A stretch of DNA of 64,000 nucleotides from Eukaryota sp. GEM-RC1 (Eukaryota), in NCBI GenBank assembly GCA_040285855.1, contig JAUFOQ010000002.1, positions 1,488,001 to 1,552,000 on the forward strand, written 5' to 3'. The notes under the pieces were generated by a model. The model was not told the origin of the DNA and did no database searches. It saw nothing but the letters and a program-made list of their open reading frames with translations. Both the position numbers and the translations under genes were made by a program. Shown one piece after another: positions 17,546 to 62,018 of this stretch (the stretch's first letter is position 1; every line of letters starts with the position of its first letter).

Positions 17546-17885
17546 ATGATCAAACTGTTTGTTCATATATTTTACGATTATTTTATTAGTCCTGCTGGTG
17601 ATCAATTTCTCAAGGATTTCGACGAATTGTGTAAAGAAAAGAAGCGTAAGTTTAGAATGGCTGAATGGAAAAACCGTATGGTGTTTTCCATATATCGGAA
17701 TATGCCTTTCTATTTCTCTAGATTAATTGAGAAATTGTACAAGTTTGGTGTGAAGGTTAATGTTGATAAACGTAATCTTTTACCGGGTGGTGATGAATTT
17801 GTTTGAATTTAATCTTAGTATTATTTGTTTGTTTTTACAATTCCATAGTTTTGTAGGAAGGTTACCTTATTGGGTGCCGATTAAA
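17546..17885 (+). pseudogene. CRE-like RLE retrotransposon 3' remnant with 3' UTR
   Basis: FLKDFDELCKEKKRKFRMAEWKNRMVFSIYRNMP matches the C-terminus of 48161-48745; the downstream ~50-bp segment recurs at 4038-4086. Confidence 0.6.
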
Positions 17886-24567: not shown

Positions 24568-26334
24568 CTATTCCCCTCTAAGCCAACAAAATCCATAATC
24601 AGGAAGTTCAACCTCAACAACTAACAAACTACCTTCAACCACACCCCTGGTATAATATTGAGATAACATATCTAAAAACAACTTGTTGCTGTAATCAGCT
24701 TCAGGTAACTCTGACAACTCAATGGAAAACTCAACCAATTGAGTAGATGAAGTCATATTACAACAACACAGTAAAACCCTCACCATCAAGGAAACGATAA
24801 AGAGCAAACACCGCATCACTGTTTCCTTCAGGAACTACATATCCACCACGACCAAAGACAGTAGACTTCTTCCTTGTTGATATCAGCCTCCTCATTTGGT
24901 TCAAAAGAGACGACTCAGACAGCTGTTGGACAGCCACTGAAGCATGATAAGGGCTTCCAGGACCACCTCCAACAACGTTAGCGTAAGGTCGTCTTGATTG
25001 AGAGAACCCAGCATTGGCTACACGAGGATCCCATTGGAAGGGAAGACGTTGGCCATCGCGATCTCTAAGGAAAAGGTTGTCACCTTGACCAATTTCATCA
25101 CCCTGTAATTAGAAATTTGAAATATTTTAAATATCATACATAATAAATAATTGGCGATCCCGGAAGTGAAAACATCAATGCATTCAACATCAAAATCTTA
25201 CGTACATCAAAATCACATATAGAAGCCAACCTTCTCCTAATCCCCAGGTTCTGTCGTTCTCTTGGTCCTTGAGCCAACACGGACCACATCCAATCTCTTT
25301 CCTCAGGGGGAAACCATCTCGAGAGTCAACTCGTCGTGGTTTCTAAGAAAGAGCATCCAGGAAGTGTTGAAGGGAATTTCAGGTGTATCGTTGAGGATCT
25401 GCTTAATGGCTGAGCACTCACCACGAACCATTGACATGAAGATTCTAGGCATTACTGGAAAGTGAAAAGCTGAGTGGAATTCAGGTTTGTCCGGGGTACC
25501 TAGGTACTGGACAACATCTCCTGGCATCATGTTTGCTTCACACAACAAAAACACATTAGGGAATTCATCTTCAACCATTTGCCTCATCTCCTGTAAAATT
25601 AAATGAGTTTCAGGTAAGTTCTCACAACTAGTGCCTTCCCGTTGAATCAAATAAGGCACAGCATCAACTCTGAATCCATCCACCCCCTTCCTACACCAGA
25701 ACTTTAAAGCATTGAACACTTCCTCCTTAACTTTAGGGTTGTCCCAATTCAAGTCAGGCTGACTACTGAAGAAGCGATGGAAGTAGTATTGTTTAGAAAC
25801 AGGATCCCAAGTCCAGTTAGAGGTTTCTGTATCACAAAAGATGATTCTAACTCCCTTGTACTTATCCTTCGAGTCAGACCACACATAGTAGTCTCTGTAG
25901 GGGGAGTTGGGATCAGATCTAGCTGCCTGGAACCAAGGATGTTGGTCAGAGGTGTGGTTGACAACGAAATCAACAATGACTTTGAGTCCAAAGTCATGTG
26001 CAGCACTAATGAAGCGGTCAAAGCTAGTGTGAGAGGTGAAGAGAGAAACCTACTCGTTTAGTGTACCGTAGTCAGGTTGGACGTTGAGGTAGTCAGCTAC
26101 GTCGTATCCATCATCAGCAAGGGGGCTTGGATAATGGGGAAGAAGCCAAAGGCAGGTTACCCCCAGGTGTTTAAGATAATGTAGTTTGGAGGTTAAGCCA
26201 ACAAAGTCCCCATTGCCATCTCCATTTGAATCTGAAAAGGCGCGGACATACAGTTCATAAAAGATAGCATCTTTGAACCAGAGTGGGTCAGGGGGAGCAG
26301 TAAGATCCAGTTTAGCAAGATTAGGGGTACTCAT
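24568..26334 (-). CDS. treS: Trehalose synthase / maltose alpha-D-glucosyltransferase (GH13, TreS)
   Basis: [110 protein letters not shown]. Introns 26024-26053 and 25103-25139; homopolymer frameshift near 25308 and another near 24790. Confidence 0.93.
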
Positions 26335-26549
26335 TAAAGGAAACGGTACAAGTGAAGGAATGAAAAAAAGTCAATCAATTCTCTTTATTCATTTTAACAT
26401 CAGAAGATTGATCACATATTAAGTAACTCTGAATCATCTGTCGTTCAGAACCCATTAGGATTGCAATGGTTTAATTATAATGAGTCAAAAATGGAGTTTA
26501 TACGTGCTAAACAATTTAAATGAAAATTTTAAAAGAAGAAGTTCCTGAT

Positions 26550-35012: not shown

Positions 35013-37261
35013 CTACTCAGTCCGACGACTGTTTTCACACATCTTCTCTTTTGGCAGTTCTTTAATTAAATTTGAAATTTCTTCTTCAGACTGTTTTTTT
35101 CCAAAATGTACGTTAATGAAACGATTAATATGTTTTTCAAAGTGGAGTTTCAAGTTGTTGTTAATGTTACACAAGAGCACTGGAGCAATGTGTTGTGGTG
35201 GTTTAGAGAAGCCTTGAGGAGGAAACATCGGGAAGTTATGGCCTTCATTTGCTTCTAACTGAATACGATAGCCCTTGTGAATTGAGTTGCTGTCGAATTG
35301 TGCTTCTCCCATGACAAATCGTTCTAAGTCCGCATCAATTGCACTACTGGGCCGTTTATAGGGCTGACCATAAAATTGGGCACAAAGATAATTTATTCGA
35401 GTCATTACAGACGTAATCATTTGTTCAGTAATTTCAGGTAACGCTTCTCCACGTTTAAATCTTGCTGATAGAAACAATTGCAGGCATTGTAGGGTATGGC
35501 GACGAAGTTCGTGAAATTGAGGTGCTAGCTGCACAATGTTTCCAAAGACATCACGATGCTTCAAAATTCGTGGAAGAGTAGACTTTACCATCCTATAAGT
35601 TGGAAGAATAAATTTTTCTTTCTGGAATAGCATAAAGAGTTTTAAAGTTAAGTTGGCATGTTGATAATTGTAATCAACTAAGAGACCGACCAGTGTACTT
35701 TCACACCAACAATCAATGGGCAAGAGATTTCCAAGTTCTTCTTTTTAAGTTTGAGACAAAATTAGTGTATCAGATTTCGTGTAAGAGATGGTAAATCGTT
35801 TCCAAATTTCATTGTGAGAAAACGTTTTGCAAACAATAAAGTATCAAGTATCAAGTATCCGTGTTTATTTTCAACAACTTCACGCCAGTTTTTAGATAAA
35901 AGATTAAGGTTGGATTCTTGGACATTAACAGGCCATTGGAACTGATAAAACTGGAAACGCTTTTCCAAAACTTTGAAGTCAAATCCAATAATATTGTGAC
36001 CAGTAATGAAATTTGGCTGGTAATCTTGAATCTCGTCTATCAATAAATGGAACAGGACCAACTCATTGGGCACAACATAGATATCAGTTCTTGGGGATAA
36101 ACTGCATTCAATTGGAGAAGGTAGGTTTGTTGCACATAGGTTGACACAGATGATAATTGATTTTTCTTCGTAAAAATTTTCTTCATTAAAACGACCAAAA
36201 ATTAATGCAACTGACATAACTGTTTGGCTAGCAATCCATCGATCATGTTCTTCTGAATTCATCTTTTTCAGCTTCAGGGATTCCTTTCCTCGAAGCTTAC
36301 TTAATTCCCTCCGTAATAGCTGTTGGAATTTCATCATCATGATGCATTGTCTCCAGGTCAATAGACATAACTTTTGGAAGAGCATAAGCATCAGGGTGTT
36401 CTTGAGTACATCCGAATTCAATCAAATTATGTTTTTCGTTGTTGTCATGTGGCTTAATTTTCTTCAAAGCTTTGAGACAAGATTTCTTAGCAGGAAAAAC
36501 TCTATTAGACAGGCGTTGTCCATTAATTTTCAAGGGAGCTCTCCGTGATGTGGCTTTAACTTGAGCTTTTTTAGCAACTCTTGCTAAAATTTCGAGATTG
36601 GACATTGGAGGACTAGAATCACTATCAACTCGACTTTTTTTCAACAGGGGGGAACAATGGAAGTCGAATCATCAAGTCGAATCAAAGGAAGACTCAATCT
36701 TGTACCGATGGGATCAGAATTGGGATTAGATTGTGGACCTGGATTGGATTCCACATCACCATCAGACGTAAGATCAATTTTGAACTGCAGTCTACAATCA
36801 AAACTGACAGAAATTTGCAAAAAACGACACGTCAATAAAATTTCACCACCACCACCACCGATCCACTGAATTTTACAAGGAGGCAAGTTTGGGGGCTGGA
36901 AAGCAGTGTGTTGCCCTGGTGGTTCTATCACCATGCTGGGCATGTAAAAATGATAGGCCTGACTGCCAAAAACAACACACATACTCCCATAAAAAACCCT
37001 CGACTTCGAAAAAAGAAAAAATTTGGATCGAATTGGATCAATGACCAAAAATGCCTTCCTTGGGGTTTTGCTTGAACAACGATGCCTTTGAATAGCATAT
37101 TGCCGCCCGGTCCCACCCAGGCTGTATGGATACAAGATATCTACAGAAGTTGCTTCTGTAGAATTCCACCTGATTTGATAGGATGACTTTCCCACCAAAA
37201 ACAGGCCTCTCATAGCCGTCGAATCAATGAACATCGACATGTGAGCAAAAAAATGGACCAT
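35013..37261 (-). pseudogene. Fanzor locus B: leader ORF, 2A peptide, PolB-type 3'-5' exonuclease, Fanzor1 N-terminal half (3'-truncated)
   Basis: GDVESNPGP (36734-36760); ExoI SIDLET, ExoII FITGHNIIGFD, LDTLLFAKR; then YRMVKSTL..RHTLQCLQLFL..NINNNLKLHFEKHINRFIN, homologous to loci A and C. Confidence 0.75.
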
Positions 37262-37587
37262 TTTGTGGGTTGTTGGTATTTATAGATGTGTCTACAGTGT
37301 CATGTCAGTCAAGACATTTATTGACGATTCTCTTCATTTTTCACTTTTCAGTGTCCTCAACATGGACAATTGACGATGAATTTGCTCCTTTCAGTTGTTC
37401 TTTAAACAATTCACATCTGTATTCTCTTCACACTTTCATTCTAAAGATGATGTATAAAGATTCGTATTGGTTTTTTAGACACACTTTACACAAAATCACG
37501 CTACAAATGTCACACTTCCTTTCTTTTTCTGTTCTTATCCTTTGTTTTGATATAAATAAAAGTATAATTGGGCGCGGACACAATTTG

Positions 37588-37660: not shown

Positions 37661-38802
37661 TTATTGGTTATACTCAACAACCTCTTTCTGAAGTTTCTTC
37701 TTTTTACGATTTAACTTAATTTTCCAATTAGGGTCTCGGACTTTATCATCTTTTAGGTTCGAGCAAAAGCCTTCTGTTCCAAGCAATGTGCAACTCGAAC
37801 AGCATTTGCTAGTTCGATACTCATCGACTAGAAAAACTTGGTTTCCGAATTTTGGGAAAAGTTTCCTCATAGATTTGCCTTTTACAAATGATCGTTTTCC
37901 AGTTCGTTTGGCTTTTCTAGAATCAATCCAATCACCAAAACCAATAATTACTTCTCCTGGTGACCCGAACTTTTGAGCAAAACGATGAAGCATATTTTGA
38001 TGACTCCTCTGATTGTTCGAGTACCTCTTCAGTCTCTGGCGTCGGAAAGACTTTTCTTCGTAAAATGGGTCTATCTTAGCCCCATAAGCTTCTGTTTTTG
38101 TCAGATACAAACTGTACTTATCTGGGGTAACCGAATTTACCTGGCCATAGGATACTCTGGAGCTGAAATTATCAGCAATTTCCTTGCCAGTCATGTGACG
38201 ACCATTTACTGTGGTTGTGAATTTCAGAAGCTTTGAGGTTTCATCGTCAGGCTCTCTGACTTGCTCATTTGGTTGCTTGTTCTTTTTCTTTTTCTTGATA
38301 AATCTGCCTCTCTGGTCAGCAGTTCGTTCACCAGCTGTGTACCAGAATGTTTTCCAGCTGTGGTTTTTTTTTCAATTTAACTTTGGTGATTTCTTTTTTT
38401 CTTTTTGTCTCTGCTTTGAGTCTTTTCTTCTCTTTTTGAGTCTCTTCTTCTCTTGTTGTATCCCCCCTTTCTTTTTGCAATTAATTTGTGAAAGCTGTTT
38501 AGATCGAGTCTTATTTGACAGGTCAAATCCCTCTTGAATTTTTTCGCTCTCAGTTTTCGGACTAACACAAAAGATTAAATCGTGTTGGTTAGCATCAATT
38601 GCTACGATTTTTTTGCCTGTGAGATTTAATTTAGTAATTTCTTCCGATGTCAGAGAGTCCACATAGCGTTCTTCTTCAGCCAAGTCATTTGCTGAAAGAT
38701 TTTTTCCAGGATTTCCATGAGAGTCCAACAAATCCTTTCTTGTCATGAGCAGGGAAGTAGAAACACCATCCGTTGGAATAGAGGTAAAAGCAAAGTCATA
38801 AG
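37661..38802 (-). pseudogene. Fanzor locus A, C-terminal part (RuvC-I, RuvC-II, first CxxC)
   Basis: SIPTDGVSTSLL, KIVAIDANQHDL, FRRQRLKRY, KFGSPGEVIIGFGDW, VFLVDEYRTSKCCSSC. RuvC-III is not found. Confidence 0.88.
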
Positions 38803-41800
38803 TGTAGGCCACAGGTGTTAATACGTGGCGGTGTTCTAGTACCAATTTCATTATTTAATACACTTTTACTTACCACATGTCTCATACAGGTAACAATGAT
38901 CATTGCTCTGTTAAAGGTTCAGATGCGCTAACAAATGATGAAAGTCTTATTAGAGACTCTCCTAGTGGAGAACTCGAACAGACTGATGGTCCTATTAGAG
39001 ACTCTCCTAGTGGAGAACTCGAACAGACTAATGACTCGAATAGAGACTCTCCTCGTGGAGAACTCGAAAGAAATCCCAAGTCAAGTAAGGACTCTCCTTC
39101 TGGAGAACCTGAAAGTATTGGTGAAGGAGTTGCACAGAGAGACTCTGGTGTGAGAATTGATGGTGTCACAACCAAAGAAACCCATGTTACACTGGATGAA
39201 TCTGATGCTGAAGGACTCCGTAAACTCCGTTTGAACCCGGATGATGAAGACGTGCAGTTTATCTCTGAGTCTAAGACCCCCAAGAAGTCTCGACAGACAA
39301 CGTCCTCTGGAGCTAAGAATCCTCTGTCAATTGATGAGTTTGACATATCTAATGTTGAATACTCTGAGGAACTTACCCAAGACGACTTGGCGAGGAAGGC
39401 GAAACGTGAAGCCGAGATGGCCGAACTATTAGCTCTCCGAAAAAAGGTCGAAGAACAAGATAGACTACTTGCTCTCTCCGTTAAACCCCATAGACCCATG
39501 TCTAATAGGGAACGGAAAGAATTCGAAGCAGGGAAACGGGCAAGGTTCATCGAGGACAACGCTCCGGACTACCTAAGGGATAGAGCTCTTCGGCATAAGG
39601 ATGCACTCCCTGATCATCTCATACCCTTCGAATCCATCCACGACAGCTTAACAGGTATGACTGCGGAAACCCTCTGGTATTATGCCAAGTTTCAACCGAG
39701 TCATCCTGATCTCAAAGCTAGGATGCGGCATAGGAAACATTACCTAATCAGGAATGTACCACCTTTGACTTCCCCAGAGAACATCAAGAAGTATCTGGGT
39801 GAGAAGTTCAACGAGAGCCGTGGGGATACCTTTCGCTTTCCGGACGATGAAGTCTGGGACCCTTCCATGGGAATGGTTGTTGAACCACTTGCTGAACTTG
39901 GAGACCCCTCTGGTCAACGAGTATTTTATGCTCACCCTCCTTGGTTTGTGTACCAAAAATCTCGAGAAGCTGCTGTGTTTCACAATGTGGCTGTCTCTAC
40001 AGATTGGGTTGACCCTGCTCACGATTTTCCCAATGTTGGACCTGGTTTAGCGTTAACTCAGAAGTTTCGAACTACTCCAGCTGATAACAGGGAGATTGTT
40101 CCTTTTGGTCTTCGAAACGATCAAAGACTTGAACCTAGCGTTGGTGCTCCTCTCTGCGAAAGCAAATATCAAGACTCTCCATAAATTCGAGAACTAGATG
40201 CTGACGCTCCTCCAAATTCTTCCTACCCCGGTAAAACGTTTAGACCTGGTGGTTCTGATATTTATGTTTATGACAAAAAATCAAAGAAGTTTCTACGTGA
40301 TAAAGAGATCAACGCTTTTGGAGATAAAAGACACAAGGGCTTGCCGAGGACTGTCTGCGAAGAAGAATTCGAAGAAGTCTACAAGATTACCGAGAATCCA
40401 GATCGCTTGAGTACAACTATGCAGATCTCGGAACTCGAGGAAACCCCAACTCAACCAGAACCTCTTTCAGAATCAGAAGTAGAAGAACATGCTCGACCTC
40501 CTTTCAGATCTCGATACGATGAATCTCCTCCCGACTCAGATGAAGAAGATAGAAGGAATCTGGCTGGATCACGTGCCTTGCGTGGATCTATGATTTTGGG
40601 AAACAATCCAATCAAATCAAAAGCTCGCCCAAAATCGAAATTCAAACCAAAGATGTTGGATTCTGTGAATCCCGATAACATCCTGAACTTCCTGTTAGAG
40701 TTCAGCTTCTGGTCTCGCGAGATTAGACAACAGGAAGACAAGGTGTACAATGATGAGTTAGGAAAGCCTATCCACTCATATGACATCTGCCGTACTGCCC
40801 TCTTGGAGATTGACCCTACTGATGTATGTGAATTTATCAACCAAAACATGGTTTATACTTGGAGACGTACAGGGGAATTATCTTCTAGTGGAACAGATGA
40901 TGAAGCCGATTGGCGTTATCTCTGTACGAAACCTCAGTACAACACTTTGGATGCTGCTACTAAGAGCTTTCAAAAGATCAATTTCACGAAATCCAATGTG
41001 GATCCTCCTGAGAAAATCGGAAAGTTCTTGAATGCGGCTATAAAAGCCATTCAACGATCCACCGCCATCAAAGGTATCGGGGAAGAAAGGATTGCAATGC
41101 CATCAGATCTGATTGCTGACCATTTGATCCAAATTATTGATTGCGATAACAACATCAACCTCCTCGAAGACCTAAAGATGAAGTGGCGTCGTGTGCTTGA
41201 ACGTAAACCTGAGATGCTCGAAGAGTTTGTTAATGACTTGAAAGAAGTCTACCTCTTTTGGGCTAGGAATAACAGTGTTCAAACCGACGAAAGAAGCTCA
41301 AGATCAAGTAAACCTTCCAAGAATGCTTTGAAAAAGGCTAGGAAACCTACGAGATTTAACTCGAACGAAAATCAACGTTCTGATGAACGTCCCTCTCGAC
41401 GAGAAGAAAGAGCTTGCTTCAACTGCAACAAGAAAGGTCATTTGTCTAAGGATTGCAAAGCCCCTAGTAAAAGCAGTGAGTCGGATGACAAGTCCAGAAA
41501 ACGTAGGTCTGGTGACGATAGTCGTAGTAAATTTTCTAAATATTCTAAGAATAAAACCGATAATTATATCTTGCAAATTAGAACAACAGTCAACGATACA
41601 CCAGATAAATATATCAATCCCCTGGCAGTTCTCAACACACAAGAGGATAAGGATGATACATCTAGAAAGATTTATAGTTTACAGAACTTAGGGATCAAAG
41701 ACAAAGGTAACGGGCCTTTAGTTCTACGATTGTTGATTAACAAAGTTCCAGTGACAGGTGAATTTGATACAGCAGCTACATGCTCTGTGATCACTCAGGA

Positions 41801-44800
41801 CCTTGTTCGTCACTGTGGAATGGAAATTACTGACGACAGTATTGATTACATTTCAGCGAATAATATTCGTGCAACTTCCTTAGGTAGTGCAATTGGTGTT
41901 CTGACGTTCAACGTCGGAAGTGTGGCCAACCAGATTCACAAAAGGCATTCTCTCCCCGTAATTCCAGGTACCGGAACATTACTGATTGGACGAGATTTGC
42001 AAAATGATCTAGGGCTCCTGACAGATGATGGTTTGATCATAAGATTAGACAAAGAACATCGCACAATCTTAAACACTGAGAGTGAATTTGATGAGAGAAT
42101 TTCGATTCCATCAAAACCCATCTTGGATCAATCAATTTCGATTGCTTCCATCAATGATGAGTGCGGCAAGTCTCAACCCTCTAATCAACCTTTGATTGAC
42201 TTTGAGAGGAAAGTTGACGATTCTGGCTGTAAGATACTACTAGATGATCCTACACGACGACAGGCATTGCTTACCCTATTAAGCGAATACTCCGAAGTCT
42301 TCTCTGAAGAAATACATCCTGACGGCATTGATTGTCCCCCGATGTCTATTCCCTTCTACGACGAGAGCACGGTTGTATATAGGCCTCCTCGACGGTTGAA
42401 CCCTGTGAAACAGAAAGTTGCCGAAGAGATCTTTAATGAATTAATACTGCAAGGATGGGCCGTACCATCGACAGGAACATTCAGCAGTCCCATTGTCCTG
42501 GTGATGTACAACGACCACCGCAAGCCCCGTTTAACTGGAGATTTCAGTGGGCCCAATGGGATAAATGCTAATACGAAGCCTGTGAAGCCGAATCTTCCCA
42601 GGATCTGTGATATACTAGAGTTCCTTTCGAATGCAAACTTCATCGGAACAGTTGATCTTCCAAAAGCTTTTTGGCAACTCAAAGTAGCTGAAGAAGACGT
42701 CGACAAGACAACTGTGTCTATACCTGGTATGTCAATTAGTTTCAAACGGGCATGTTTTGGTTTGAAGAATGTACCTGCAATCTTCCAAAACATTATGATG
42801 GACATATTCAACATTGAGGGTGTTTTTATTTATATTGACGATATAATAATCATAGGGAACACATTTGAAGAATATATGGATCGATTACGACAAGTACTAG
42901 ATTGCGCCAGACGCTTTCGTGTACGTTTTGGATTACGTAAATGTTATTTTGTAACTTGTAATCACAAAATCAAGATTCTAGGCAGCATCTTTGTGAACAA
43001 AACCCGTTGCATCGATGAAAGTAGAATTTCTGCTTTGAGGAACCTACCAGCTCCAAGTAATCTCACTGAAGTTAGAAGTCTGATTGGTGCTTTGAACTAT
43101 ATAAGAGACTTCATTCCAAATTTTTCGGATTTGACAGCTCCATTAGTAGCACTAACTCGTGACAAACCTAAGAAGATACTGTGGACAACGGAACATGATG
43201 AATTATTAGAATCAATCAAAGGATTAATAATCAATCATATGGCTTTAGACTTGCCTAGTGAAGAAATGAACATCATAATCTCCACGGATGCATCTAACAT
43301 AGCCGTAGGTGGCGTGATTTGGCAGGAAGAAAATCCTCGATCTCCACCTGGGACTCCTCTAAAAGATCGAAAGGTTCGACCTATCTCTTTCTATAGCAGA
43401 CTTTTGAACAATAGTCAGCAGAATTGGGCCGCAATTCAGAAAGAATTGTATGCCATTTTGCTGATTCTGACTGAATCAACCTTGGAAGGTTTCCTAATGA
43501 GTAGACACTTGACGATCTTTACAGATCATAGGAACCTTGCCTTTCTCATAACTGCACCTGAGAATAACCGGATTGTCAAACGATGGATCCCAATATTTTT
43601 TTGAGTATAGTTTTGAGATTGAGCACGTTGCAGGAGAAGATAATCAATGGGCTGACATGCTATCACGAGTAATCGATCGCAGTCCCATTGAGACAATCAA
43701 ATCACTGATTTTGACAGATCACGTCTCAGATCGGAACATTGTACTCAATCAAATGGATATGAGACACAATGGAGATGACTACACCGAGTTACGGTTCATC
43801 AAGGATAACTCAACCTATGTCATCAACAATCTACGGGAACTATCTGTCGACAACCAACTTCCTTTGTTCGACTCTTGGCTGTCAACCATTAGATCCGAAG
43901 AACTGAAGGCTTATGAGTTGAAAGATCCTTTATTTAAGAATACGGTACTATGCTCTGAAAGCATGATACACTTATCTAAAGACAAGAAAATCCTGATACC
44001 AAGCACTTTGAGGAAAACAGTACTCAATATGCTCCATGGTTTAGTCCAAGCAGGACACCCAAACTTGAAAGATAGTTTGGCTAAGCTGTTCAACAGTGGC
44101 TACTTTTGGCCTAAGATGAAAGCTGACATGGTAAAACATGTTAAGCACTGTCCAGCCTGTCAGAAAACAGCTCCGGCTAATAAACTGACTATCGAATCGA
44201 CGGGTTCGTTATGGGCCGACAGACCTTTCGCAAGACTCAATGTCGACACGATTGGACCTCTTCCAAAAGATCAAGATGGTAATCAGTTCTTACTGGTCTT
44301 CGTGGATTCGTTCACAAGATATACTATCCTTAGCCCCCTCGAAGAACTAAATAGTATCGAGGTAGCACATCGTCTAGTGTGGGATGTTGTTGCTATCTTT
44401 GGAGTACCTTTTATGATTCACAGTGATAACGGCAAGGAGTTTGCTAACTCCACGTTCGAGGCAGTTTGTAACCTGCTGGCCGTTGAGATCAGTCGTTCGA
44501 TTCCACATTTCTCTCAAAGTAATGGTCTGGTGGAACGTCGACACAGGGATGTACTTCAAAGTCTACGTCGTCTCCTTGTAGATTTCAACGATTACGATAG
44601 TTGGTCTAGATATATTCCAGCTGTACAACTTCAAATAAATGCTACTAGTAGTAGTGTCACAGGCCACTCACCATATGAACTGATGTTTGGAAGTGATATT
44701 AGCCCTGGTTCTGATCCAGGAAACATGCTAAAAGCATTCGAACAAAGTCGATCTGAGATTCCATTCGTAAAAGATATGGCTCTAAAACTCGAAAGACTAA

Positions 44801-45465
44801 CGAAAAAGCGAGAAGAGGCAGAGACTCGTCAAACAAGTAAGGCCCCTCGCAAAACCAACAAAAGTAACCCGTTCAAGATAGGTGATCTCGTACTGAAGAA
44901 GTCTAAGACATCTAAGCTACATGGTAGTTATGCTGGACCATTCCTGGTAATGTCAGTTGATTCTCAATCATCAATGTCAATCAAGAATCTGATTACTGGT
45001 CACGTCAGCAAAGCTAGTGTCCACCAATGTAAGATCTATCTCACAGACTTACCCAATGACTCTGATTTCCATAAGGCTGTTGCGTCAGCCGATTCCGAAG
45101 AACATATCGTCCTTGAAATACTCGACCGCTATGATACCTCCGATGGTGAACACTGTACTGTGTTATGGTATGGTGGTGAAACCTCCTCAGTTCCCACCAA
45201 GGATATTTCCAATACCAAAGCTTATTCTGCGTTTATTAAATTAGAAAGTATTGATAGTAAAGTCCACAAGCCTAAGAAGCCCTTGCCTCGTACTAGAGTA
45301 TCTAGCTCAGGACTGTCTAGTAAAACACCTGTTGCCAAGAGAACTAGGAACTCGAAGAGAGAGAAGAGGTAGTGTAGGCCACAGGTGTTAATACGTGGCG
45401 GTGTTCTAGTACCAATTTCATTATTTAATACACTTTTACTTACCACATGTCTCATACAGGTAACA
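38803..45465 (+). mobile_element. Ty3/Gypsy LTR retrotransposon with chromodomain-like integrase tail
   Basis: Identical 93-bp TG..CA LTRs (38803-38895, 45373-45465); TSD TAAG (38799-38802, 45466-45469); polypurine tract before the 3' LTR; domain order PR-RT-RH-IN. Confidence 0.97.
38877..45372 (+). CDS. Gag-Pol polyprotein (in-frame stop at 40182-40184; T-run frameshift near 43600)
   Basis: CFNCNKKGHLSKDC knuckle; FDTAA protease; FSSPIVLV, DLPKAFWQ, FGLKNVP, YIDDII (RT); TDASN..KELYAI..TDHRNL (RNase H); GHP..CPACQK, VDTIGP, SDNG, NGLVER (integrase); GPF; HIVLEILD..VLWYG (chromo-like). Confidence 0.95.
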
Positions 45466-46800
45466 TAAGATAGGGAAGTTGAAACTGATTTTGGTTTAAG
45501 AACAGTATTCCATAATTCCTTCCTTATTGTATCCATTTCTCCCTTGAGATCTGGCAAGAATCTCAATTGAAACCAGTTAGAGCCCAGTCTCACGTGACCA
45601 GGAATTAGTGATGACGTCACTGGAAAGGGATTGGTGACGGAGACATTATCACAGAATTCCTCAATCAGTCTGTTCAAATAGATTGCATGTGAAAGGAACT
45701 TAAGAGGGTTTACTTTTTGAGCATAGTATAATCCCTTTGGCATTTTCTTGTTTAATTGACATGTCAAGTAAGTCCAAAAAGCAATAGTTAACCTAGAATT
45801 GGTGTTTGGAAAAATAGTTTGATCCTGAAAATCAATTAAATCAATTTGTCCGTTGACAATCAACTCTCGGATGCTGTTAAGCCGCTGAAAAAAAGTTTTC
45901 GTTCATCTTCACACTCAATTTTCATGACTCTAGATTCTTTCTCCGTTACTAAGTTGAAGACTCGAAAGACATAGTAGTGAAAGTGTTTTGCCATATTATT
46001 CTTGTAACTGGTGGAGATCTCAGTGGCCATGTAATCAAGTAGTCTGGGTAAGTACAAGTTACTTGGGAATTTTACCATTTGCTTACCAGCAACTATAGCA
46101 GCAGCGTTCAAAAGAGGAAGGAACTTAGTGAGTAGATGATTAATAAGTCGAATTTTAAGCAGATTCAAAGAATTCCATTTTTTTGCGACCTTTTTCAGGT
46201 CTTCTTGGCGTTCAAGGACAATCTGGCTCAAATGGTCAGATGAGCCGTCCTTTTGATCGTCATCAAAGATAACAAAACCTTCAGAGGTTTCTGATCCAGA
46301 ATTTCCGAGTAATTTGGCAAATTACAATGTGTTCCCATAGAATCTTTAAATTTCAAATATTCACAGTCAAATTCGTGAATCAAAAAATGTTTTAGGAAGT
46401 GAGTTTCTCGAACTCTAACGTGGTGACTTCTTTTCACACACGATTCGATAACTTTGATTTTTGATTTTGTCACAACTTTGGTGAGTCTTCTTTTAATCAC
46501 CTTCATTGGAGGTTTTTCTCTGATTTTCTGCTTGTTTCCATCAAACAAGTCACAAGCAATGAATTTTAACAGATGCAGGCGATCAATTGCATTTTGCAGT
46601 AAACGGGGTCTTGTTGATGACGCCTTCCAAAGGTCATTGGTTGTTTTTAGTTCACTAGAAGTTTTTAACCTAAACAATTGCTTTGCAGATAGTGCAGAAA
46701 CATTATTTTCCGCTTTGAAATTAGCGATAGCTTCATCAATGTTATACAGAGGATTGGTTAGAATTCGTATTAATTCGGAATTTTTCCAATTTTTTGATCA
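45466..46800 (-). pseudogene. Fanzor locus A, N-terminal part
   Basis: VIKRRLTKV..IESCVKRSHHVRVRETHFLKHFLI, YMATEISTSYKNNMAKHFHYYVFRVFN, LYYAQKVNPLKFL, PFPVTSSLIPGHVRL, ELWNTVL. Joins 38802 in frame (STSLSY-DFAFTSIPTDGVS) once the LTR element is removed. Confidence 0.85.
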
Positions 46801-47750
46801 TGTTCCAACATAATTTGAGTTGCGTTTTCCAAAAAGCGACCACCTTTAAATTTGTACAAGGATTTTAAAACTGAGTTTAAATCCAGGCAGTGAAATGGAC
46901 CAAAAGAGGACGTTTTGCACCATCTCTTAAACCATGTGGGTACATATGGAGTATATCCATCAAATTGAAAATTAACATTAATAACAGAATTGTTGTGGTA
47001 ATTGACATTAAATTTGGACAAAGATGTACAAAGTAATTGTGGATTTTGATTTAAAAACATAGTTGGCAATCACGTATCACAGTGTGATTTGTGATAACGA
47101 TCACAGCGTGTGATCACATAAATCACATTGCGCTCAAACTGTGTGATCACAATGTGATTTGTAATTACCAAATAACAAAGTTTAACCAAATCTATTATTA
47201 ATGTATACTCGATCTAAGTTGGAAAACAGCATTTGTCAATTTATTAACATACACGTAGCTTTGAGACAAGCCAAAAATCTTTGAACAATCAATTATCAAT
47301 TAACAATCACGAACGTAATTGCCTTTTTAATTTGATATTTGCTTTGATATTGCATTTTCACATGTCCAAATGACATCTGTGACTGTCAAAGTGAGAACCA
47401 AAGAGATTGTGTCCATCTTTTAACTTTTCGTTGTTAAAACACGAATGGAAAGTACCACTACCTTCGCTCAAACACTGCTTGAACTTCAATGGATTCAAAA
47501 CATTCAGACAAACTGATCTCCTTTATCGTGCTCTTTACGTTTTTACGTTGAAAAGGTCTCTTATTTTGGCTTCTTTTTTCAACATTGGTAGGTTAAATTA
47601 AACCAAAAAGAACTGAATACAGAATACAAGTACAGTACAGAACACGGTATTAAGTGTATTTTATAGATCGCAGTTTCAAGTGTTAATCCAAAGTATATTG
47701 TAACAGAAGAATGTGCTCAAATAGTATTTATTTAGTGACATTGATACAAT

Positions 47751-48745
47751 TTGTGGTTACGACCTCTTGATTCTGTCATTCAAAACCTATCTGCTGACAT
47801 TTGGAACAAGTGTTTTCCTAAGTCAATCTCTTCTATTCCTGATAGTTCAATCGAGTTTCTACATTTATCTGTGGTAAAATTCCAAAATTGTGTTTTACAT
47901 GGCTTAGAGCACTTGGATTTTTCTAAACGTCTTAGTGTTACTAAGGTAAATAATCCCGTCTTTGCTGCTTTTCTTTTGGATTTAAAAAACTGTTCATCGT
48001 TTATTACTCAACAGCCTAGACCTTATGGTCTTCATCTCAATAATGAGGCTTGGAAACTTAACATGCGTCTTCGCTTAGGTCTGTTTCCATCTGAATTGTT
48101 AGCTAATACTATGTGTTGTTGTGATAAGAGACCAAAAGCTGACTTCAGACACATTGTTAGTTGAAAAAATTTCTTCAGTTTAGATCAATTTTACACAATG
48201 CTGTTCGTGATGTTACGTATGAAATGTTTAAATGTCATGGGTTTAATGGGAAAATCGAACCTCTTCTTAAGCATTATGGTGATGATAATATTACCAATTC
48301 TCGACGAGGTGATCTCATTGTTCCATATCTTGATTCTTGTCAAGCTGTGATAGATTTTACTACTGTTGATCCATGTGCTAAAGTATATTTGAATTCAGTT
48401 TCGAGTGATACTGAAAATCATTTATCCAAAGCTGAAAAAAGAAAGATTAGTACATATTCTGACACAATGATCAAACTGAATTCCAATTTGTATTCTTCTT
48501 TTAAGTTCATTCATTTTGCTATTTCAATTCTTGGTAATATTGGATTTGCTGCTGAAAATTTCTTTGATGCCTTTTCAAAGTTGTGCCGTGATCATAGGAA
48601 AAATTTTAATCGGTCTCTTTGGCGTAATCGCATTGTGTTTTCCTTATATAGAAGTTTCCCAAAGTATTTGAATCGTATTCTGGACAAATTGTATCGTGGT
48701 AGTTCAAGAGTAGATGTGGATCATTTAATATCTTTTAAGTACTAG
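47751..48745 (+). pseudogene. 5'-truncated CRE-like non-LTR retrotransposon (zinc knuckle plus restriction-like endonuclease)
   Basis: MRLRLGL, CCC..HIVS, RSILHNAVRD, IEP, RRGDL, IDFTTVDP, AEKRKISTY, FAISILGNIG. Confidence 0.75.
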
Positions 48746-49079: not shown

Positions 49080-49804
49080 TGGCATTAGAACGACATTAAA
49101 GACTCAAATCAAGAAAATTTGCCAAATGATGTTCAATGTAGCTGTGGAAAACAATTGAGGTTTTCTAATTTGTTAAGTTGTAATTGCTACATCACTTGTC
49201 GAACGTGTATGCATGATGCTGTACTAGACCAAATACATGCTATGTGTAAGTCTTATAAAATTGAATCATTTGTTGAACCACTTCTAAGATCTTTAGAACC
49301 AAATATCAATTGTAATGACGAAACTGAACAAATTTGTTGGTAAACGGAGAATAGATGTTGTTGTCCCTTCTTCTTCAGACAAATTGTTTGTGGTCAATGT
49401 AGTGTCAGTGGATGTTTGTAACAAGACATCTTGAAAGAACACTTCGTCTGAAACCCTTTAGAGATTTCTGAACAAGCCAAACAGGATAAGTGCAAGAAAC
49501 CATTGATGGCTCCAAAACATGTAAAACAAGTTGAATACGAATTGTGCCTTTTGCTGTTTCAATCTACGGACGTTTAGGTAAACGTGCATTTAATTTATTA
49601 AACAATTTCGGAAACATATTAAAAAATAAGATGAACAAACGTTTTGATCATATGTTATGGATGAATCGTATCGTTTTTACTGTTTTTAAAACAATTCCCC
49701 TAATCATCTCCAAAGCTTTATTAGCCATGAGTTCCTTTTATGAGGACAAAGCTGTTGTAAGATTTGATAGCGACGGGTGTTGTTTTAATGATATCAAAGT
49801 TTAA
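49080..49804 (+). pseudogene. Second decayed CRE-like RLE remnant
   Basis: CSCG..LLSC..HDAVLD..VEPLL, PFAVSIYGRLG, WMNRIVF; colinear with 47751-48745. Confidence 0.7.
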
Positions 49805-49843
49805 TTGTTTAGACCAGTCAGGGATCGAAAACAATAAATTGTA

Positions 49844-53901: not shown

Positions 53902-56250
53902 CTACTTCTCAGATTTACCTACATTGTACATGCTGATGGACTTAACCAAATATGGCCGGGTTTCACCAGCCAGCAAACAAAAATAAAGCTCATTTCTACA
54001 TAAATACTCCACTCTCTCATCACTACCATTCATCCAATGCTCGAACATGTTCATCATGTTCAAACAAGCCATCTTGTTGCGATTCCAATACATTTGAATG
54101 GGCACTGTATGCCCTTTTCTTTTTCTCCTTCAATCGCTTCTTGACTTCTCCCAGACAGTGTTTGCTCTTACACTCTAGTAAGCCATATGGATGAATCCAT
54201 TCTCTCTTCTCTCTTGATTTGGGCTTTGGGTTGACAACCTCAATAGAAGTTTCAAAAACATCTTCATGACATTCTGGGCACTTGGACGAAGTGTTTCTCT
54301 CATCATTCAACACTGTTAGAAAACCATTTCTCTGAAAGAATGAAGTCCAAGTCTTAGTTCTGGATGGTGGACTGTGTTTTAAGTTGGACATTGGCTTCTG
54401 ACCTAAATCACCAATACATAGTACGATTTTGTCACGGCTACCAAAAGTTTTTACAATGCTGTTAACCAATTTAGACTCTGTCTTTTGCTTATGGACATGA
54501 TTTTGGATTTTGTGAATCCTCCATATATGCAAAGCATAGAAATCTTTAGTTGCATTGTAGTGAATATATTTATTCAGCATAAATTCTCTAAATTTATTGT
54601 AGTTGACTGTCTTAGAATTCTGATCTTCACCTAACCAAGTGTTCCATTCCTCAATAGTCTTCGTCTGACCTGAGGGACTAGTACCAGATCTCCTTCTAAC
54701 AAGGTACTGGTGGATTCTTTTATGCTTTCTCGAAACTCTTGACCACTCAGCATATGTCAATCGTAAAAAGTTGTATTTTTTTAGAGGATTTTGAGTTTCC
54801 CTATTTGATTTAGATGCAAGTTGTAGCATATCTCTCTTTCCAATGTCCACATAAACCATATGTTTAGAAATTAAATCAGACCTATCACACTCATTGAAAT
54901 ATTGTACTTTTACTGAAGCTTTACTTGAATCAGGTTTGCATTTCATTCCTTTCAAATCCTTTCTCACAAATTGAAAACAAATCGAAATTCCATCAGTTAC
55001 AACATAGTTGTGAATTCAAAATTGGCTTTGTCATAACTTCTGCCATCACAGTTAAACCATCTTTTCCAGTAATCTTGTTGTTGAGAATGGGTCATGTTGG
55101 TGATCTGCTGTTGAGTCTTGTCATTAGTCACTTTCGAGTGTAAAGGACCAATCTTCTTATCATTTTTCCTATATCCAAAACAGTGCTTAGCCAGTCCCCA
55201 AAGAGTTCTAGTGTCTATTGGGAAAAAACAGGGAGTATTCTCTAAACTTAGAGGAATTACATTATACAACTTAGCACCCTTGGATTCCAAGTAATCTGAG
55301 ATTTGAAGAGAATTTCTTAGAAAATGAAGTGGATACTCCTGAACTGTGTAAAGTAAATTATGAACGTCTACAGTTTCATTGTCGTTAGTAGTGATTGAAG
55401 CAGGAAATATGATGTTAAATCTTTGAAGTAATTCTGGAATTTTAACAGCCATGAGAAAATTAATCTGTTCAAATATTAACATGCTGAAATCATCATCAAA
55501 AACTTTGGAAACTTCATCAATAAACTTAATATTTTCAGGGTGAGTGGCAGAGTTAAAAGAATTAATATACTGTAAGGCTTCATGTCTAGGTCGATACAAA
55601 ATCTGATCTTTCAATATCTTTAAGCGAAATCTGAAGTAACTGGTGAATTTTTGAGCTTCACACCCTGTTAGTCCTGCAAGTTCTGGACCTAAAACTAAAT
55701 TACGTTTCTTCTTCATTCCCTTTTCAAACTCTTTCTTACCCATTACTGTATTGATAAATCTTTTAATGTACAACTCATAATTGCGACGAATATTTAGTTC
55801 AAACGCAGGCCACATTTCATACTGAGTAGTGTACTCAAAAGCTCTACTGATGTGATCAAAATCAAGTTCTGGTATATGACATGTGCCAAATGTATCAGTA
55901 ACACAGTGCTTATATCCGGGGTAGTTTGAATTGGCTATAGATTCCTTCTCCAGCAACAAAATCACGAAGATCTGTATCAATTGTTTATATAGGACGATTG
56001 TTTGGAATTTTAAAGTTATGAACTTCAGATGAAAGATTTCTAATGGAGAGCATTGTATGATTAAACAACTTGTAATCAAACTTAGACAAATCTTGTCCAA
56101 GACGATAGCGAGCCAACAGATATTCTTTAACACACATTGTAGTCTGTTGTCTTAAAGCATTGTAGAACTGAGATCCTAAAAGCATGGCATCTTGAACTTC
56201 TTGATGTTTTACCACACTAACAACTGAAGTTTTAATAGAAGCCCATGATT
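53902..56250 (-). pseudogene. Fanzor locus C: Fanzor1 nuclease portion, full length but frameshifted
   Basis: IKTSV, FELNIRRNYELYIKRFIN, YPLHFL, YNVIPL..FFPIDT, TDGIS, VYVDIG (RuvC-I), KTFG..VLCIGD, LNDERNTSSKCPEC, YGLLECKSKHC, YWNRNKMACLNM (RuvC-III with D>N), ERVEYLCR. Confidence 0.9.
53925..54000 (-). ncRNA. Candidate omegaRNA scaffold at the 3' end of Fanzor C
   Basis: Directly after ..ERVEYLCR: stem-loop TGGCTGG-TGAAAC-CCGGCCA, with possible outer TGCTG/CAGCA pairing. Confidence 0.4.
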
Positions 56251-57147
56251 GAAAAACAATTTTGTCTTTTTGAAATAAACTAAACAATTTAAACGCCAAA
56301 ATTGAATCATGAAGACAGTAGTTGATTAGAGTTTTCATTCTTTTATCATTTCTTAAACAATCAACTGGGAGTAAGTGATCCAAGTCTTTATCCAATTTCA
56401 ATTTGGGTTCAGAAAGTAAATTCCAAGATAAATTGGCTAGACTACAACCATACTTGAGACCAATATCCTTTTTGCAAACACGAAGGTATCAAAAACTGTA
56501 AAACCATTGTGATCTTTTATGATATCCAGCCATCTACTATGTAAAGGTAACTCAATTGGATTTGGATTTGTTAAAAGAGGAAGGTCAAGAGCCCACATTC
56601 TATTGTCAATTATGGGCAAATCAAAATAGAAAATATTATGGCCAATAAAAGCATTTGGTTTATATTGACTAACAATGTTAGCGTACGTAACCAATAATTC
56701 GTTTTCATTTGGGAAGACCAAAAGATCTAATTTAAAAGCTGGTGTTTCTGATTCACTGAATTTGATTTTATAATTGTAGTCAGTGTAAAGGACGATTGAG
56801 CTGTCAAATTGTAACTCACCATTGGGTTGTAGTTTTGCAATAATGACAGAGATCATGATGATTTGTTGATCTGTGAGAAAATCAAGGTCGTGAGCTTCTT
56901 TCTCAAAATCATTCATTAGAGATCTTCTCTGTTTCCAAAGACTCTTTTCCGTTCTACGATGTTCATTCAATTCTTTGTTCACTCGTGTAGGAATTCTCTC
57001 ATTGATATTTCTTGTTTCAATATCAATTATAAAAACTGTAGGAAGGTTGTCATCAACAACAGTATCAGTTACAATGTCAATAAATGGAATTCTTGATTCT
57101 TTTTCCTTTTTTCCTTTGACAACTGGAATTTCAGGAAATTCATGCAA
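56250..57147 (-). pseudogene. Fanzor locus C: PolB-type DEDDy 3'-5' exonuclease domain
   Basis: ExoI FIIDIETR, QIIMIS, FPNENELL, ExoII FIGHNIFYFD, FDTFVFAKR, ExoIII LINYCLHDSIL. No polymerase palm motifs follow. Confidence 0.85.
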
Positions 57148-57388
57148 AGAATCAGTTGAACCTTCAACTACTTGCGAACTTTGACATTCTTCGTCAGTTT
57201 TCGGGAATTTTGTACAACCACTAGATGGATTATACAGTCTCTGTTGACGTTTAGAAACTTGTTCTTGTGGACGATGAATTTCTGACGAATGACACTTTTT
57301 GGTTTCCGTTCTAGCCGTCGTGCTTTAGAGTTTTTTACGGATGTGTCAGATGAAGAAGAACAACTTGATGAAATTTTATTAGTTACTT

Positions 57389-58405
57389 CTAGAGTTTTAC
57401 GACGAGATGACATACGTGTTGAAGGTTCAGAATCGGAAGATTTATTTCTTTTCCAACAGGTTGATTAGTTTTGGGACATTGTGTCTTTCTTCTACCAGTA
57501 GAAACTTGGGTTGTTTGTTGAACTATATCTCCAGACAAGATTGAATTTAAAATTTGTTGAGCAACAGATCGATGTTGACCAGTGTGAGTGTCAATGATGA
57601 GATTCAAAATTCTTTTCCTCATTTCTAGAGCATCATATTCATTGAACAATCGAACTTGAAGTAGAATTACGTTGATATCTAGTGACATTTGTTCAAATTC
57701 AACAAATTTACTCATGTACTCTAAAATAAAAGGTCCACAGTCACCTTGTGTTTGGTGTTGAGTTACGAAAAGCCTTCCTAAATAATGATAATTGAAAGGA
57801 AAAAACACACGCTCATGAAATTGTCTAATAACATCTTCGCAACGACCTAAAGTATCTGAAAACTTTTGATGTTGATTTTGAGTAAACATTGGATCAAGGG
57901 AATAGTATCTTTTTCTCTTAATATCACAAATCAACAGAGTCCAGTGAGTTGCTTCATTATTAAAGATACCATCGTTTATTGGAATAAACAAATATTGTTT
58001 GGTTGGTGGTCTGGAAGAATTCATCAAATCTAAGGTTTCGTGAAATAATTTGTGAAGATGCCAACGATCTCTTTCTTCTTCAGCCAAATTGTCCTCTGTT
58101 ATTGCAAGTGACAATGCTTCACACGAGAGATATGAACATTTAACACTATGTTCAGTGATGTACTGTCCATAAAAGTCTACAACAGTGGTCCACAACCAAC
58201 TATGAGGTAGCAAAGAATCAATATTGGAATGATTTTCAATTAGATCGGGTCCAAGATTGGACTCAATGTCCCCGTCCATAGTCAAATCACGGAGAAATTG
58301 TGATGACTGGAGATTTATTTTGGTTTTTAACAAGAACATAATACAACAAGCACAACAAGAAATGCTATAAGAGAAACAAAACAAAACAGATATCTCAGGA
58401 CACAA
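57389..58405 (-). pseudogene. Fanzor locus C: 2A-like peptide plus Ulp1/SENP (C48) cysteine protease
   Basis: DLTMDGDIESNLGP (GDIESNLGP at 58247-58273); SLLPHSWLWTTVVDFY, LFIPIN..HWTLLICD..YSLDP..QTQGDCGPFIL. His-Asp-Cys triad intact. Confidence 0.85.
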
Positions 58406-58856
58406 GCGTCCATCGAAATCGTAGAAAAAAACCAGAACTGATGTTCTTTTGAGGAATGACTACAAGAAATTCTATAAGAGAAACAAAACAAAACAGATAT
58501 CTCAGGACACAAGCGTCCATCGAAATCGTAGGAAAAAGCCAGAACTGATGTTCTTTCGAGAGTACAAAAGACAGAGGAAGATTAGAAAGAGTTGAAGTAC
58601 ATCTGGGGCCACTAAGGACCCGCGACGTACTTCGCGTTACGAACTGATGTTCTTTCGAGAGTACAAAAGACAGAGGAAGATAAGAAAGAGTTGAAGTACA
58701 TCTGGGGCCACTAAGGACCCGCGACGTACTTCGCGTTAAGAACTGATGTTCTTTCGAGAGTACAAAAGGCAGAGGAAGATAAGAAAGAGTTGAAGTACAT
58801 CTGGGGCCACTAAGGACCCGCGACGTAGTTCGCGTTAAGAACTGATGTTCTTTCAT
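58355..58856. repeat. Compound tandem array: two units at 107-bp period and three 99-bp units
   Basis: GAACTGATGTTCTTT at 58435, 58542, 58641, 58740 and 58839. On (-) the 99-mer encodes KEHQFLTRSTSRVLSGPRCTSTLSYLPLSFVLS from ATG 58856. Confidence 0.95.
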
Positions 58857-58911
58857 AATTTGAGATAGGTTAAGAAGAGATGTGAAAGATATCTCAAATA
58901 AGGATTCACAC

Positions 58912-58965
58912 TATTTATAGGATGTTGTCTACAGTGATATCTTGACATTATGACATCTTCTTCAT
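58912..58965 (-). promoter_or_regulatory. Conserved TATA-containing upstream motif shared by Fanzor loci B and C
   Basis: (-) CACTGTAGACAACATCCTATAAATA here versus CACTGTAGACACATCTATAAATA at 37277-37299; each lies just upstream of the leader ATG. Confidence 0.6.
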
Positions 58966-59489
58966 ATGTTATTGATTCTGTTAAGTGTATTCAACATTTG
59001 GTAATACAACATTTGTATCAACAACATTTGTAGAAGACTATGAGATATACTGAAACGTACTGATACAATAAAAATCGCCATTTATTTACTCTCAAATATG
59101 TCTTATGGTTTTCTGTACATCTGTCATTCGTCAGACCTGTAGTTCCGTCCGTCTTTTCAATCCAGAAGATTATGAAGATTACGGACTGATATGAAGGAAG
59201 ACAGGGTCTTTCTGCAGTACTTACGGGCTCAATGTTATATGAGTAACCCAAGTAGTGTATTGGCTTGTTTGAAGATGATGTATATGTTTGACTTGACGAA
59301 TAAACGGATGTTTGTCAGATGGATCATTTTAGTGATGAAAATTATTGCCACAATAAACAATATTATTGCAATATTATTGTTTATTGCTGTGACTCACAAT
59401 AAATATATTGTTATTGTTTTGACCAACAATAAATGTATTGTCAATATTTATTGCAATAAATAAAATAACAATAGATTTTTTCGCCTGCC

Positions 59490-60959: not shown

Positions 60960-61240
60960 GCTCTTATTATGATATGTATTTTTGTACCCTCCATCAAAAA
61001 ACTGTTTTTCTACAATATACATTGTCCCATCATTTGCCAACTCCGATTGTTTGTGGTTGCTGGTTAAGTCTATTATTAATACAAACAATCCAAGCTTGTA
61101 TGAGGTCAACGATCTTAGTAATAAAATTTGTAACCATTGTTTATATTAATCGATATCTAAGCTATGTATCTGACCTCTAAACAACAAAAACTGTCAACAG
61201 GTCTTAGTTCATAGCTATAGAAAGAGAAACAGTTTTTCAA

Positions 61241-61749
61241 TCTGGGGTGAGAGTTCACAAAACATTGAAGTCAGCAAAATTAAGGTAGATAAAGTTTGTT
61301 TCCTCACAATTGAGATAAGCTAATCGAAACAAGTTGATCATCATGGAAAACAATGGACATTGAGACATACTTAAAAAATAGGTATCCTAGATACCAACTA
61401 TACCAATCAATGAATAGAATTCACTTGTTATCTGAGGTGAGAGGTCACAAAAGGTTGAAGTCAGCAAAATTAAGGTAGATAGAGTTTGTTTCCTCACAAT
61501 TGAGATAAGCTAATCGAAACAAGTGGATCATCAGGGAAAACAATGGACATCGAAACATACTGAACAAATAGGTATCTTGGAATCCAACTATACCAACCAA
61601 GGAATAGAATTCACCGGCTATCTGAGGTGAGAGGTCACAAAACAATAAAGTCAGCCAAATTAAGGTAGATGAAGTTTGTTTCCTCATAATTGAGATAAGC
61701 TAATCGAAACAAGTTGATCATCAGGGAAAACAATGGACATTGAACATAC
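61241..61749. repeat. 190-bp tandem repeat, about 2.7 copies
   Basis: AAGTCAGC(A/C)AAATTAAGGTAGAT at 61268, 61458 and 61648. Confidence 0.92.
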
Positions 61750-61753
61750 AGTG

Positions 61754-62018
61754 CATGAAGAATTGGCAGAACTTCACCCTTGAAAAAAAGAATCTAATGG
61801 GAAAGTTTTCTCCAAAAGACCTAAACTTGATGCCACCGATGTTATCCATAAAGTCCTTGTTGGGACCATCATCTTCACTACAACCACCCACCAGAAAAGT
61901 GTTTTGTCCACTGCATCAAGAGGAGGCTCAAAAAACTATTGCTGTGGATGGACCCTATCAGGGCAAAAGTATCTACAAGTGTACTCAGGAGCCTCCTTGT
62001 GTGTTTTTTATGAAGTGA
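61754..62018 (+). pseudogene. GRF-type zinc-finger fragment
   Basis: CPLH..A......GPYQGKSIYKC....CVFF. Confidence 0.55.

Follow-up and report, generated by a model that had tools for sequence, protein, structure and literature searches.

A family of multi-domain Fanzor1 elements carries a StopGo/2A motif of the DLTxDG class between an unconserved leader and the protease, exonuclease and Fanzor1 domains. Judged from its sequence, this motif likely makes the ribosome skip a Gly-Pro bond, which would release a leader-free, multi-domain Fanzor that starts with proline. The finding comes from a 64,000-nucleotide stretch of DNA from Eukaryota sp. GEM-RC1, analysed as a whole and hereafter called the window, in which the family is represented by loci A, B and C (Table 1). 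From the N-terminus, a variable leader is followed by the 2A, then in some members by a protease of Ulp1/SENP8-like type, and lastly by a PolB 3'-5' exonuclease domain and Fanzor1. StopGo has been described in RNA viruses, retroelements and a few cellular genes. If Fanzor1 elements are indeed headed by a selected 2A, its range would extend to DNA-level selfish elements, and there would be a first concrete handle on the translation and dosing of a eukaryotic OMEGA nuclease. With its exonuclease and ubiquitin-like protease, the family moreover supplies naturally fused Fanzors, which are relevant to the role of Fanzors after cleavage and are similar to engineered editors that pair a nuclease with an exonuclease.

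Table 1. Coordinates of the Fanzor1 family loci and associated features within the window.
Feature	Position	Strand	Remarks
TATA-like CTATAAATA, upstream of locus B leader	37277..37285	minus	24 nt before first in-frame ATG; consensus match
Leader ORF, locus B	36641..37261	minus	first ATG to skip site 175 codons, then 31 to stop
StopGo/2A 14-mer DLTSDG-DVESNPGP, locus B	36734..36775	minus	six-frame translation; DLTSDGDVESNPGP
Predicted skip point, locus B	between Gly 36737-36739 and Pro 36734-36736	minus	
Basic linker and PolB-type 3'-5' exonuclease domain, locus B	35762..36668	minus	PF03104 E=2e-12
Fanzor1 N-terminal part, locus B	35013..35744	minus	similarity to relatives stops at 35043; 3'-truncated
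Locus A, exonuclease remnant and Fanzor1	37661..46982	minus	divided by LTR retrotransposon
LTR retrotransposon inside Fanzor A	38801..45465	plus	95-nt identical direct repeats; TAAG target duplication
Leader, locus C	58352..58920	minus	TATA-like site 58912-58920; 99-bp tandem repeats 58541-58854; 107-bp duplication
Decayed 2A DLTMDG-DIESNLGP, locus C	58247..58288	minus	DLTMDGDIESNLGP; CTT at first Pro position
Ulp1/C48 cysteine protease domain, locus C	57389..58246	minus	directly after 2A; PF02902 E=1.7e-10
PolB-type exonuclease domain, locus C	56437..57324	minus	PF03104 E=5e-13
Fanzor1, locus C	54001..56488	minus	four frameshifted pieces; PpFz1 E=2e-14, SpuFz1 E=2e-12

The first-pass annotation of this DNA had reported an exact D(V/I)ExNPGP match, and this is borne out: GDVESNPGP occupies 36734-36760, with the core DVESNPGP itself at 36757..36734 on the minus strand. 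In six frames, this is the sole exact D[VI]ExNPGP and the sole NPGP in the window. The window holds two DLTxDG hexamers, exactly the locus B and locus C sites, and a profile built from 14 family 22-mers matches only the same two 2A sites there. By chance, six frames would be expected to contain the core 3.8e-5 times, or 7.8e-12 times together with the hexamer, and 150 third-order Markov simulations gave 0 core matches. Locus B, with DVESNPGP, fits the class A StopGo/2A core, (D/G/C/N)(V/I)ExNPGP, whereas the window copy of C, with NLGP, does not. The hexapeptide upstream of the B core, DLTSDG, is a recognised one: DLTxDG is upstream motif 4, tied to D at p12 and S at p15, and the representative tested in reticulocyte lysate showed StopGo at almost 100% (passages of PMC12846837). 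The 14-residue signature of this viral motif, with D at p12 and S at p15, is identical to that of B (passages of PMC12846837), and the same pattern occurs in 62/62 viral loci fetched by pattern. Because B fits both the core and motif 4, it matches both halves of a validated StopGo class. Viral StopGo, however, belongs to RNA virus polyproteins, whereas here the motif sits in a chromosomal DNA element, near the N-terminus and behind an unconserved leader. When the motif was masked in 84 loci that carry it (62 viral, 22 metagenome), none matched Fanzor, the exonuclease or the protease.

Sequence comparison supports the motif as a conserved feature of the family under protein-level selection. We fetched 59 proteins, comprising 26 family proteins with the site (two of them the window's own), 32 without it and a viral polyprotein, P0025, which was excluded. 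Absence of the motif from other family members had been named by the first-pass annotation as grounds for giving up its reading; we looked for it, and found the exact core kept in 23/26 site-bearing proteins and the full 14-mer in 19/26, counts that lean upward because the query sequences themselves contained the motif. Among the seven without the full 14-mer, four carry a single substitution each, and three, the NLGP copy among them, start at a hexamer-internal Met. Those inspected among the site-less proteins either start downstream of the site or represent cellular-type proteases or fragments of Fanzors; P0016 appears to be out of frame at that point. The contrast between motif and flanks within a protein is not affected by query bias in the way that the census is. 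When eight divergent members were compared in 28 pairs, identity was 0.92 within the motif, 0.22 over the 16 aa upstream and 0.26 over the 130 aa downstream. Between B and C, 11/14 motif residues are identical, and 8 of those 11 use different, synonymous codons. The CTT of locus C had been read as a change from CCT, with the suggestion to check other C-family copies for NPGP. All three other cluster members have NPGP, so the NLGP is specific to this copy. The B leader as query found four further copies, three with NPGP and one with IPGP. Could the motif still have arisen by chance, or be an inactive look-alike with a structural role in the protein? StopGo activity here is a prediction from sequence, but the chance expectation is 8e-12, the alignment shows the motif to be better conserved than the active site and catalytic domain of the protease, and it is absent from four Ulp1-family matches that are cellular-type proteases (P0029, P0030, P0032 and P0033). 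We give this explanation almost no weight.

The first-pass annotation had also placed the motif in a Fanzor element. This holds in that the motif is a conserved feature of the family, but in B itself the 2A frame stops at 36641, out of frame with the Fanzor. Nor does a Fanzor directly follow the 2A; the domain immediately downstream is the exonuclease in B and the protease in C. The protease domain opens with a conserved Trp, and in most members that bear the domain this Trp follows the skip proline at a distance of 13-17 residues; P0018 and P0027 have an insertion. The leaders are unrelated, measure 10-222 aa as annotated and often consist of in-frame tandem repeats. In B, the 175-codon leader frame stayed open in 0/5000 shuffles, and the first four ATGs past the TATA-like site are all in the leader frame; the window has just two copies of CTATAAATA, one ahead of each 2A. 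A signal peptide function for the leader is not favoured, with a 19-residue hydropathy above 2 in 2/21 leaders and a value of 1.15 for the B leader. From these sequences, the 5' module appears to have been swapped between subfamilies: the same leader, 2A and ∼17 next codons precede two exonuclease genes (P0008, P0009 and P0012 versus P0010 and P0011), and the 33-aa leader repeat of C precedes another protease in P0027, where it is in frame with an intact 2A.

The downstream domains can be followed through the relatives, which are named Eukaryota sp. GEM-RC1 and TZLM3-RCL in the databases. The host, we infer, is a Skoliomonas-like metamonad, as the isolate names resemble those in passages of 10.1101/2023.05.03.539051. 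The C ORF gave 21 matches among 1.84 billion representatives, and the ten looked up were nine from GEM-RC1 and one from TZLM3-RCL. The C protease retains His, Asp, Gln and Cys in the alignment; as sole query it had no significant PDB match. The best structure match of P0055 is the SENP8/NEDP1 deneddylase (PDB 1xt9, E=3e-9), with catalytic His, Asp and Cys shared, a match obtained with this single member after an alignment with two cellular-type proteases was set aside. Unlike SENP8, the family protease is element-borne and would be released by the predicted skip. The C exonuclease has ExoI and ExoII in one frame and the ExoIII Asp in the next. The acidic residues of ExoI/II/III are complete in the C family, the ExoIII Asp is replaced in B, and ExoI and ExoII are degenerate in A; the role of the exonuclease may therefore differ by subfamily.

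A Fanzor1 RuvC (D..E..D/N) and C-terminal zinc finger are present in loci C and A and in P0057. The C copy has the RuvC-I Asp, the RuvC-II Glu, the C-terminal cysteines and Asn at the RuvC-III position, and this Asn occurs in two species (window 54001-54090, minus; P0057), P0057 (TZLM1-RC, 11 members) being a C-type Fanzor with complete RuvC. There is a parallel in GtFz1, which is active with Asn at RuvC-III (passages of PMC11423790). The C-terminal part of Fanzor A matches SpuFz1 (E=7e-8). The B family is collinear with the C family over 699 aa (E=3e-68, 27% identity) and by this homology, which extends up to the RuvC-I motif, would qualify as Fanzor1. At the protein level the elements are multi-copy, with clusters of 7, 18 and 11 members. 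The B exonuclease query retrieved the 7-member GEM-RC1 cluster, in which the exonuclease and the N-terminal half of Fanzor share one ORF; in P0058 (18 members, 83-95% identical to C) one ORF runs from the exonuclease past RuvC-I. In the window B copy itself, the exonuclease region is 89-95% identical to P0001-P0007, with ATG at 36605, ExoI DxE near 36359, a frameshift near 36305 and a premature TAA at 35762-35764, where relatives carry Glu. The similarity to relatives ends at about 35043, next to a host SANT-domain gene, and RuvC is missing, so this copy is a broken relic, unable to make nuclease.

How, then, would an intact element be expressed? The first-pass annotation had proposed leader plus effector from one ORF. 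Relatives are consistent with the one-ORF part: P0042 (997 aa) and P0044 (1098 aa) are each encoded by a single ORF in which leader and 2A lead into one or two protease domains, then into an exonuclease that is degenerate and a tail 54% identical to the N-terminus of Fanzor A. The predicted effector, however, is multi-domain, not a bare Fanzor, and the leader, given its lack of conservation, is unlikely to be a useful second product. P0019 and P0026 have the 2A, a protease-like region and the exonuclease joined in frame. Altogether, the 2A frame continues downstream in P0009, P0019, P0026, P0042 and P0044, and stops 31 codons past the skip in both B-type records, window B and P0011; no record in our protein-database searches runs unbroken from 2A to RuvC in one ORF. 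For the B subfamily, and perhaps C, it could be argued that the 2A ORF stands apart as an upstream ORF and that reinitiation at the ATG at 36605 makes the exonuclease-Fanzor, whose release would then not depend on skipping. The stop at 36641 is common to P0011, the ATG 36 nt further on starts P0004, P0005 and P0007, and 3/3 long B-type exonuclease proteins are annotated from a downstream ATG. Yet in P0009 the B leader and 2A are continuous in frame with an exonuclease-like domain of another kind (PF03104 E=0.0014), and the T-rich stretch that breaks two sister copies of P0009 is open in P0009 itself. The change toward the exonuclease frame in B falls within a 25-nt stretch (36644-36668) that contains a C6 run; two C linker breaks sit at A runs, and other C breaks are open in P0058. 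Reinitiation thus strikes us as improbable.

Undercalling of runs in repeats is a known error of assemblies built from nanopore reads. For the named relatives, assembly used R9 nanopore reads corrected with Illumina data (passages of 10.1101/2023.05.03.539051), and the breaks lie at or near single-base runs, so sequencing error is a plausible source of the frame breaks after the B 2A and the C protease. The protease ORF of the C subfamily ends alike in 4/4 records. A programmed frameshift after the B motif, considered by eye, is not supported, as there is no canonical slippery heptamer. A non-standard genetic code is ruled out by the host ORFs nearby, which read open for up to 2086 aa with the standard code.

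We thus favour ribosome skipping, on the evidence that the motif exists, is conserved and keeps a fixed place at the start of the first folded domain, and that two relatives have an in-frame path from 2A to Fanzor N-terminus. Translation would start at whichever ATG the repeat-rich, variable 5' end supplies, the nascent 2A would stall the ribosome, and the leader would be released at Gly-Pro. Elongation would resume at the proline, giving the same N-terminus from every copy, whatever its leader, and making expression independent of the number of leader repeats. The product with this fixed N-terminus would comprise the protease (if present), the exonuclease domain and Fanzor1, of which the protease likely strips NEDD8/SUMO-type tags and the exonuclease may trim ends cut by Fanzor. 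Incomplete restart may also reduce the dose of the DNA-cutting enzyme. Alternatively, the 2A might act mainly as a dose limiter, with stalling and drop-off cutting the amount of nuclease and leader trimming incidental. The leader, as noted, is unlikely to be useful in itself, and a down-regulated downstream product has been proposed for non-LTR 2As (passages of PMC3708506). Counting against skipping to a fixed N-terminus, reduced protein abundance is a frequent outcome for eukaryotic 2A-like peptides (passages of 10.64898/2026.06.17.732966), and the 2A core alone is insufficient, several non-LTR 2As with near-canonical motifs being inactive (passages of PMC3708506). Against a mainly dose-limiting role, the DLTxDG class skipped at almost 100% in vitro (passages of PMC12846837), and the skip site lies at the protease domain boundary, which fits a defined N-terminus. 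A mainly dose-limiting 2A therefore seems unlikely, and we retain skipping to a fixed N-terminus as the probable role. It is quite possible, though we put this forward tentatively, that the family is a DNA-transposon-type RNA-guided nuclease that uses a viral StopGo, with one skipping-trimmed ORF giving a deneddylase/deSUMOylase, a proofreading-type exonuclease and Fanzor1 as one protein. Such a protein would cut guide-matched DNA, trim the ends and disarm host ubiquitin-like control across a whole metamonad lineage, and these would be the first such elements.

A further parallel is with non-LTR retrotransposons. 2A-like sequences occur in the APE-type elements L1Tc, Ingi, CR1, L2, Rex1 and Crack (passages of PMC3708506), and a Dualen-type ORF2p bears deubiquitinase domains (passages of 10.64898/2026.06.17.732966). 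As with the Fanzor 2A, these 2As are found early in a mobile-element ORF and immediately precede its first enzyme domain, some with ubiquitin-like protease cargo; the payload here is instead a TnpB-derived RNA-guided nuclease with a PolB exonuclease. One could suppose that the 2A belongs to a captured protease cassette, or to another element type such as a non-LTR ORF start, and only hitchhikes on some Fanzors. Such an origin would fit non-LTR ORF2p, which can begin with a 2A and in some cases has deubiquitinase domains fused to it (passages of PMC3708506 and 10.64898/2026.06.17.732966). About ten 2A-protease proteins have at most a putative Fanzor link, including both from the second named species, P0028 and P0055, into which the 2A-protease unit extends, and the exonuclease profile had no match in P0055 or P0020. 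Locus A also lacks the 2A, with no 2A or protease remnant upstream of this copy, whereas its relatives P0042 and P0044 have both. Against hitchhiking, the 2A persists in protease-less B-type and P0009-type copies, and it heads three mutually distant Fanzor lineages (27% identity for B versus C). Pfam scans of the 2A-bearing proteins show the C48 protease and the PolB exonuclease downstream of the 2A, with no APE endonuclease or reverse transcriptase, and a polymerase only in the viral polyprotein P0025. We regard hitchhiking as very improbable.

Compared with the known Fanzor1 proteins SpuFz1, PpFz1 and GtFz1 (passages of PMC3627910, PMC10530073 and PMC11423790), the family shares RuvC/TNB matches to PpFz1 and SpuFz1 and a multi-copy habit, and differs by its N-terminal exonuclease fusion, often with a SENP8/Ulp1-like protease, and by the 2A. 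The main-text passages of PMC3627910, PMC10530073, PMC13565253 and 10.1101/2023.08.09.552727 make no mention of an exonuclease, a polyprotein or such fusions. Term searches of passages of the 2A surveys PMC12846837, PMC12338488, 10.64898/2026.09.24.754024 and 10.64898/2026.06.17.732966 found no Fanzor, and passages of 10.64898/2026.06.03.729735 likewise offered nothing relevant. Literature searches on Fanzor and 2A peptides listed papers that concern vectors or tools; 2A-like with Ulp1 and transposon gave none, and ribosome skipping with DNA transposon gave a LINE-1 paper only. The literature covered, whose scope did not extend to subscription papers (the 2023 Nature Fanzor paper included) or Repbase-type annotations, thus yielded no 2A in Fanzor/TnpB or DNA transposons, in agreement with the first-pass annotation, which had not seen the feature reported for Fanzor/TnpB. 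Both components are known; their combination, a 2A with a multi-domain Fanzor1, was not found in print in the literature covered.

Within the window, we found no shared element ends, terminal repeats or linked transposase, and Rfam, searched for an ωRNA over 33000-62000, gave 0 matches. Wider searches for relatives were similarly negative, with 37 pattern matches and 0 confirmed in a metagenome scan with P0007, 294 and 0 in a viral scan with the Fanzor alignment, no match to P0058 in a phage collection, and no usable match to P0019 or P0058 in the ESM Atlas. A single-sequence AlphaFold model of P0042 (pLDDT 36.7) was discarded.

Several other features of the window merit mention. The 5' flank of C (59261-59291, plus) and the RuvC-III coding end (54041-54071, minus) share a 31-nt, 87% inverted match, which could be a subterminal inverted repeat or what is left of a Fanzor end on the opposite strand. 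A short cysteine-rich reading, CxxC..CxxC (37420-37540, minus), lies between Fanzor A and the leader of B. The LTR retrotransposon within Fanzor A is full-length, and a lone stop codon (40184) separates its first ORF from a 1139-aa ORF that follows in the same frame, an arrangement suggestive of readthrough. Just upstream of locus A, ORF pieces at 47745-48745 (plus) resemble, by eye, the C-terminal end of a non-LTR retrotransposon; Pfam found nothing for 48161-48742. Intact-looking MULE and hAT transposase ORFs lie at 49871-51832 (plus) and 12359-14423 (minus), respectively, and a 194-nt inverted match joins 17391-17584 and 49613-49806. The ORF at 25303-26370 (minus), of the alpha-amylase family and presumably trehalose synthase-like, looks bacterial in a eukaryotic context and is a possible lateral transfer. 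Finally, a 190-nt repeat stands in three tandem copies at 61240-61809.
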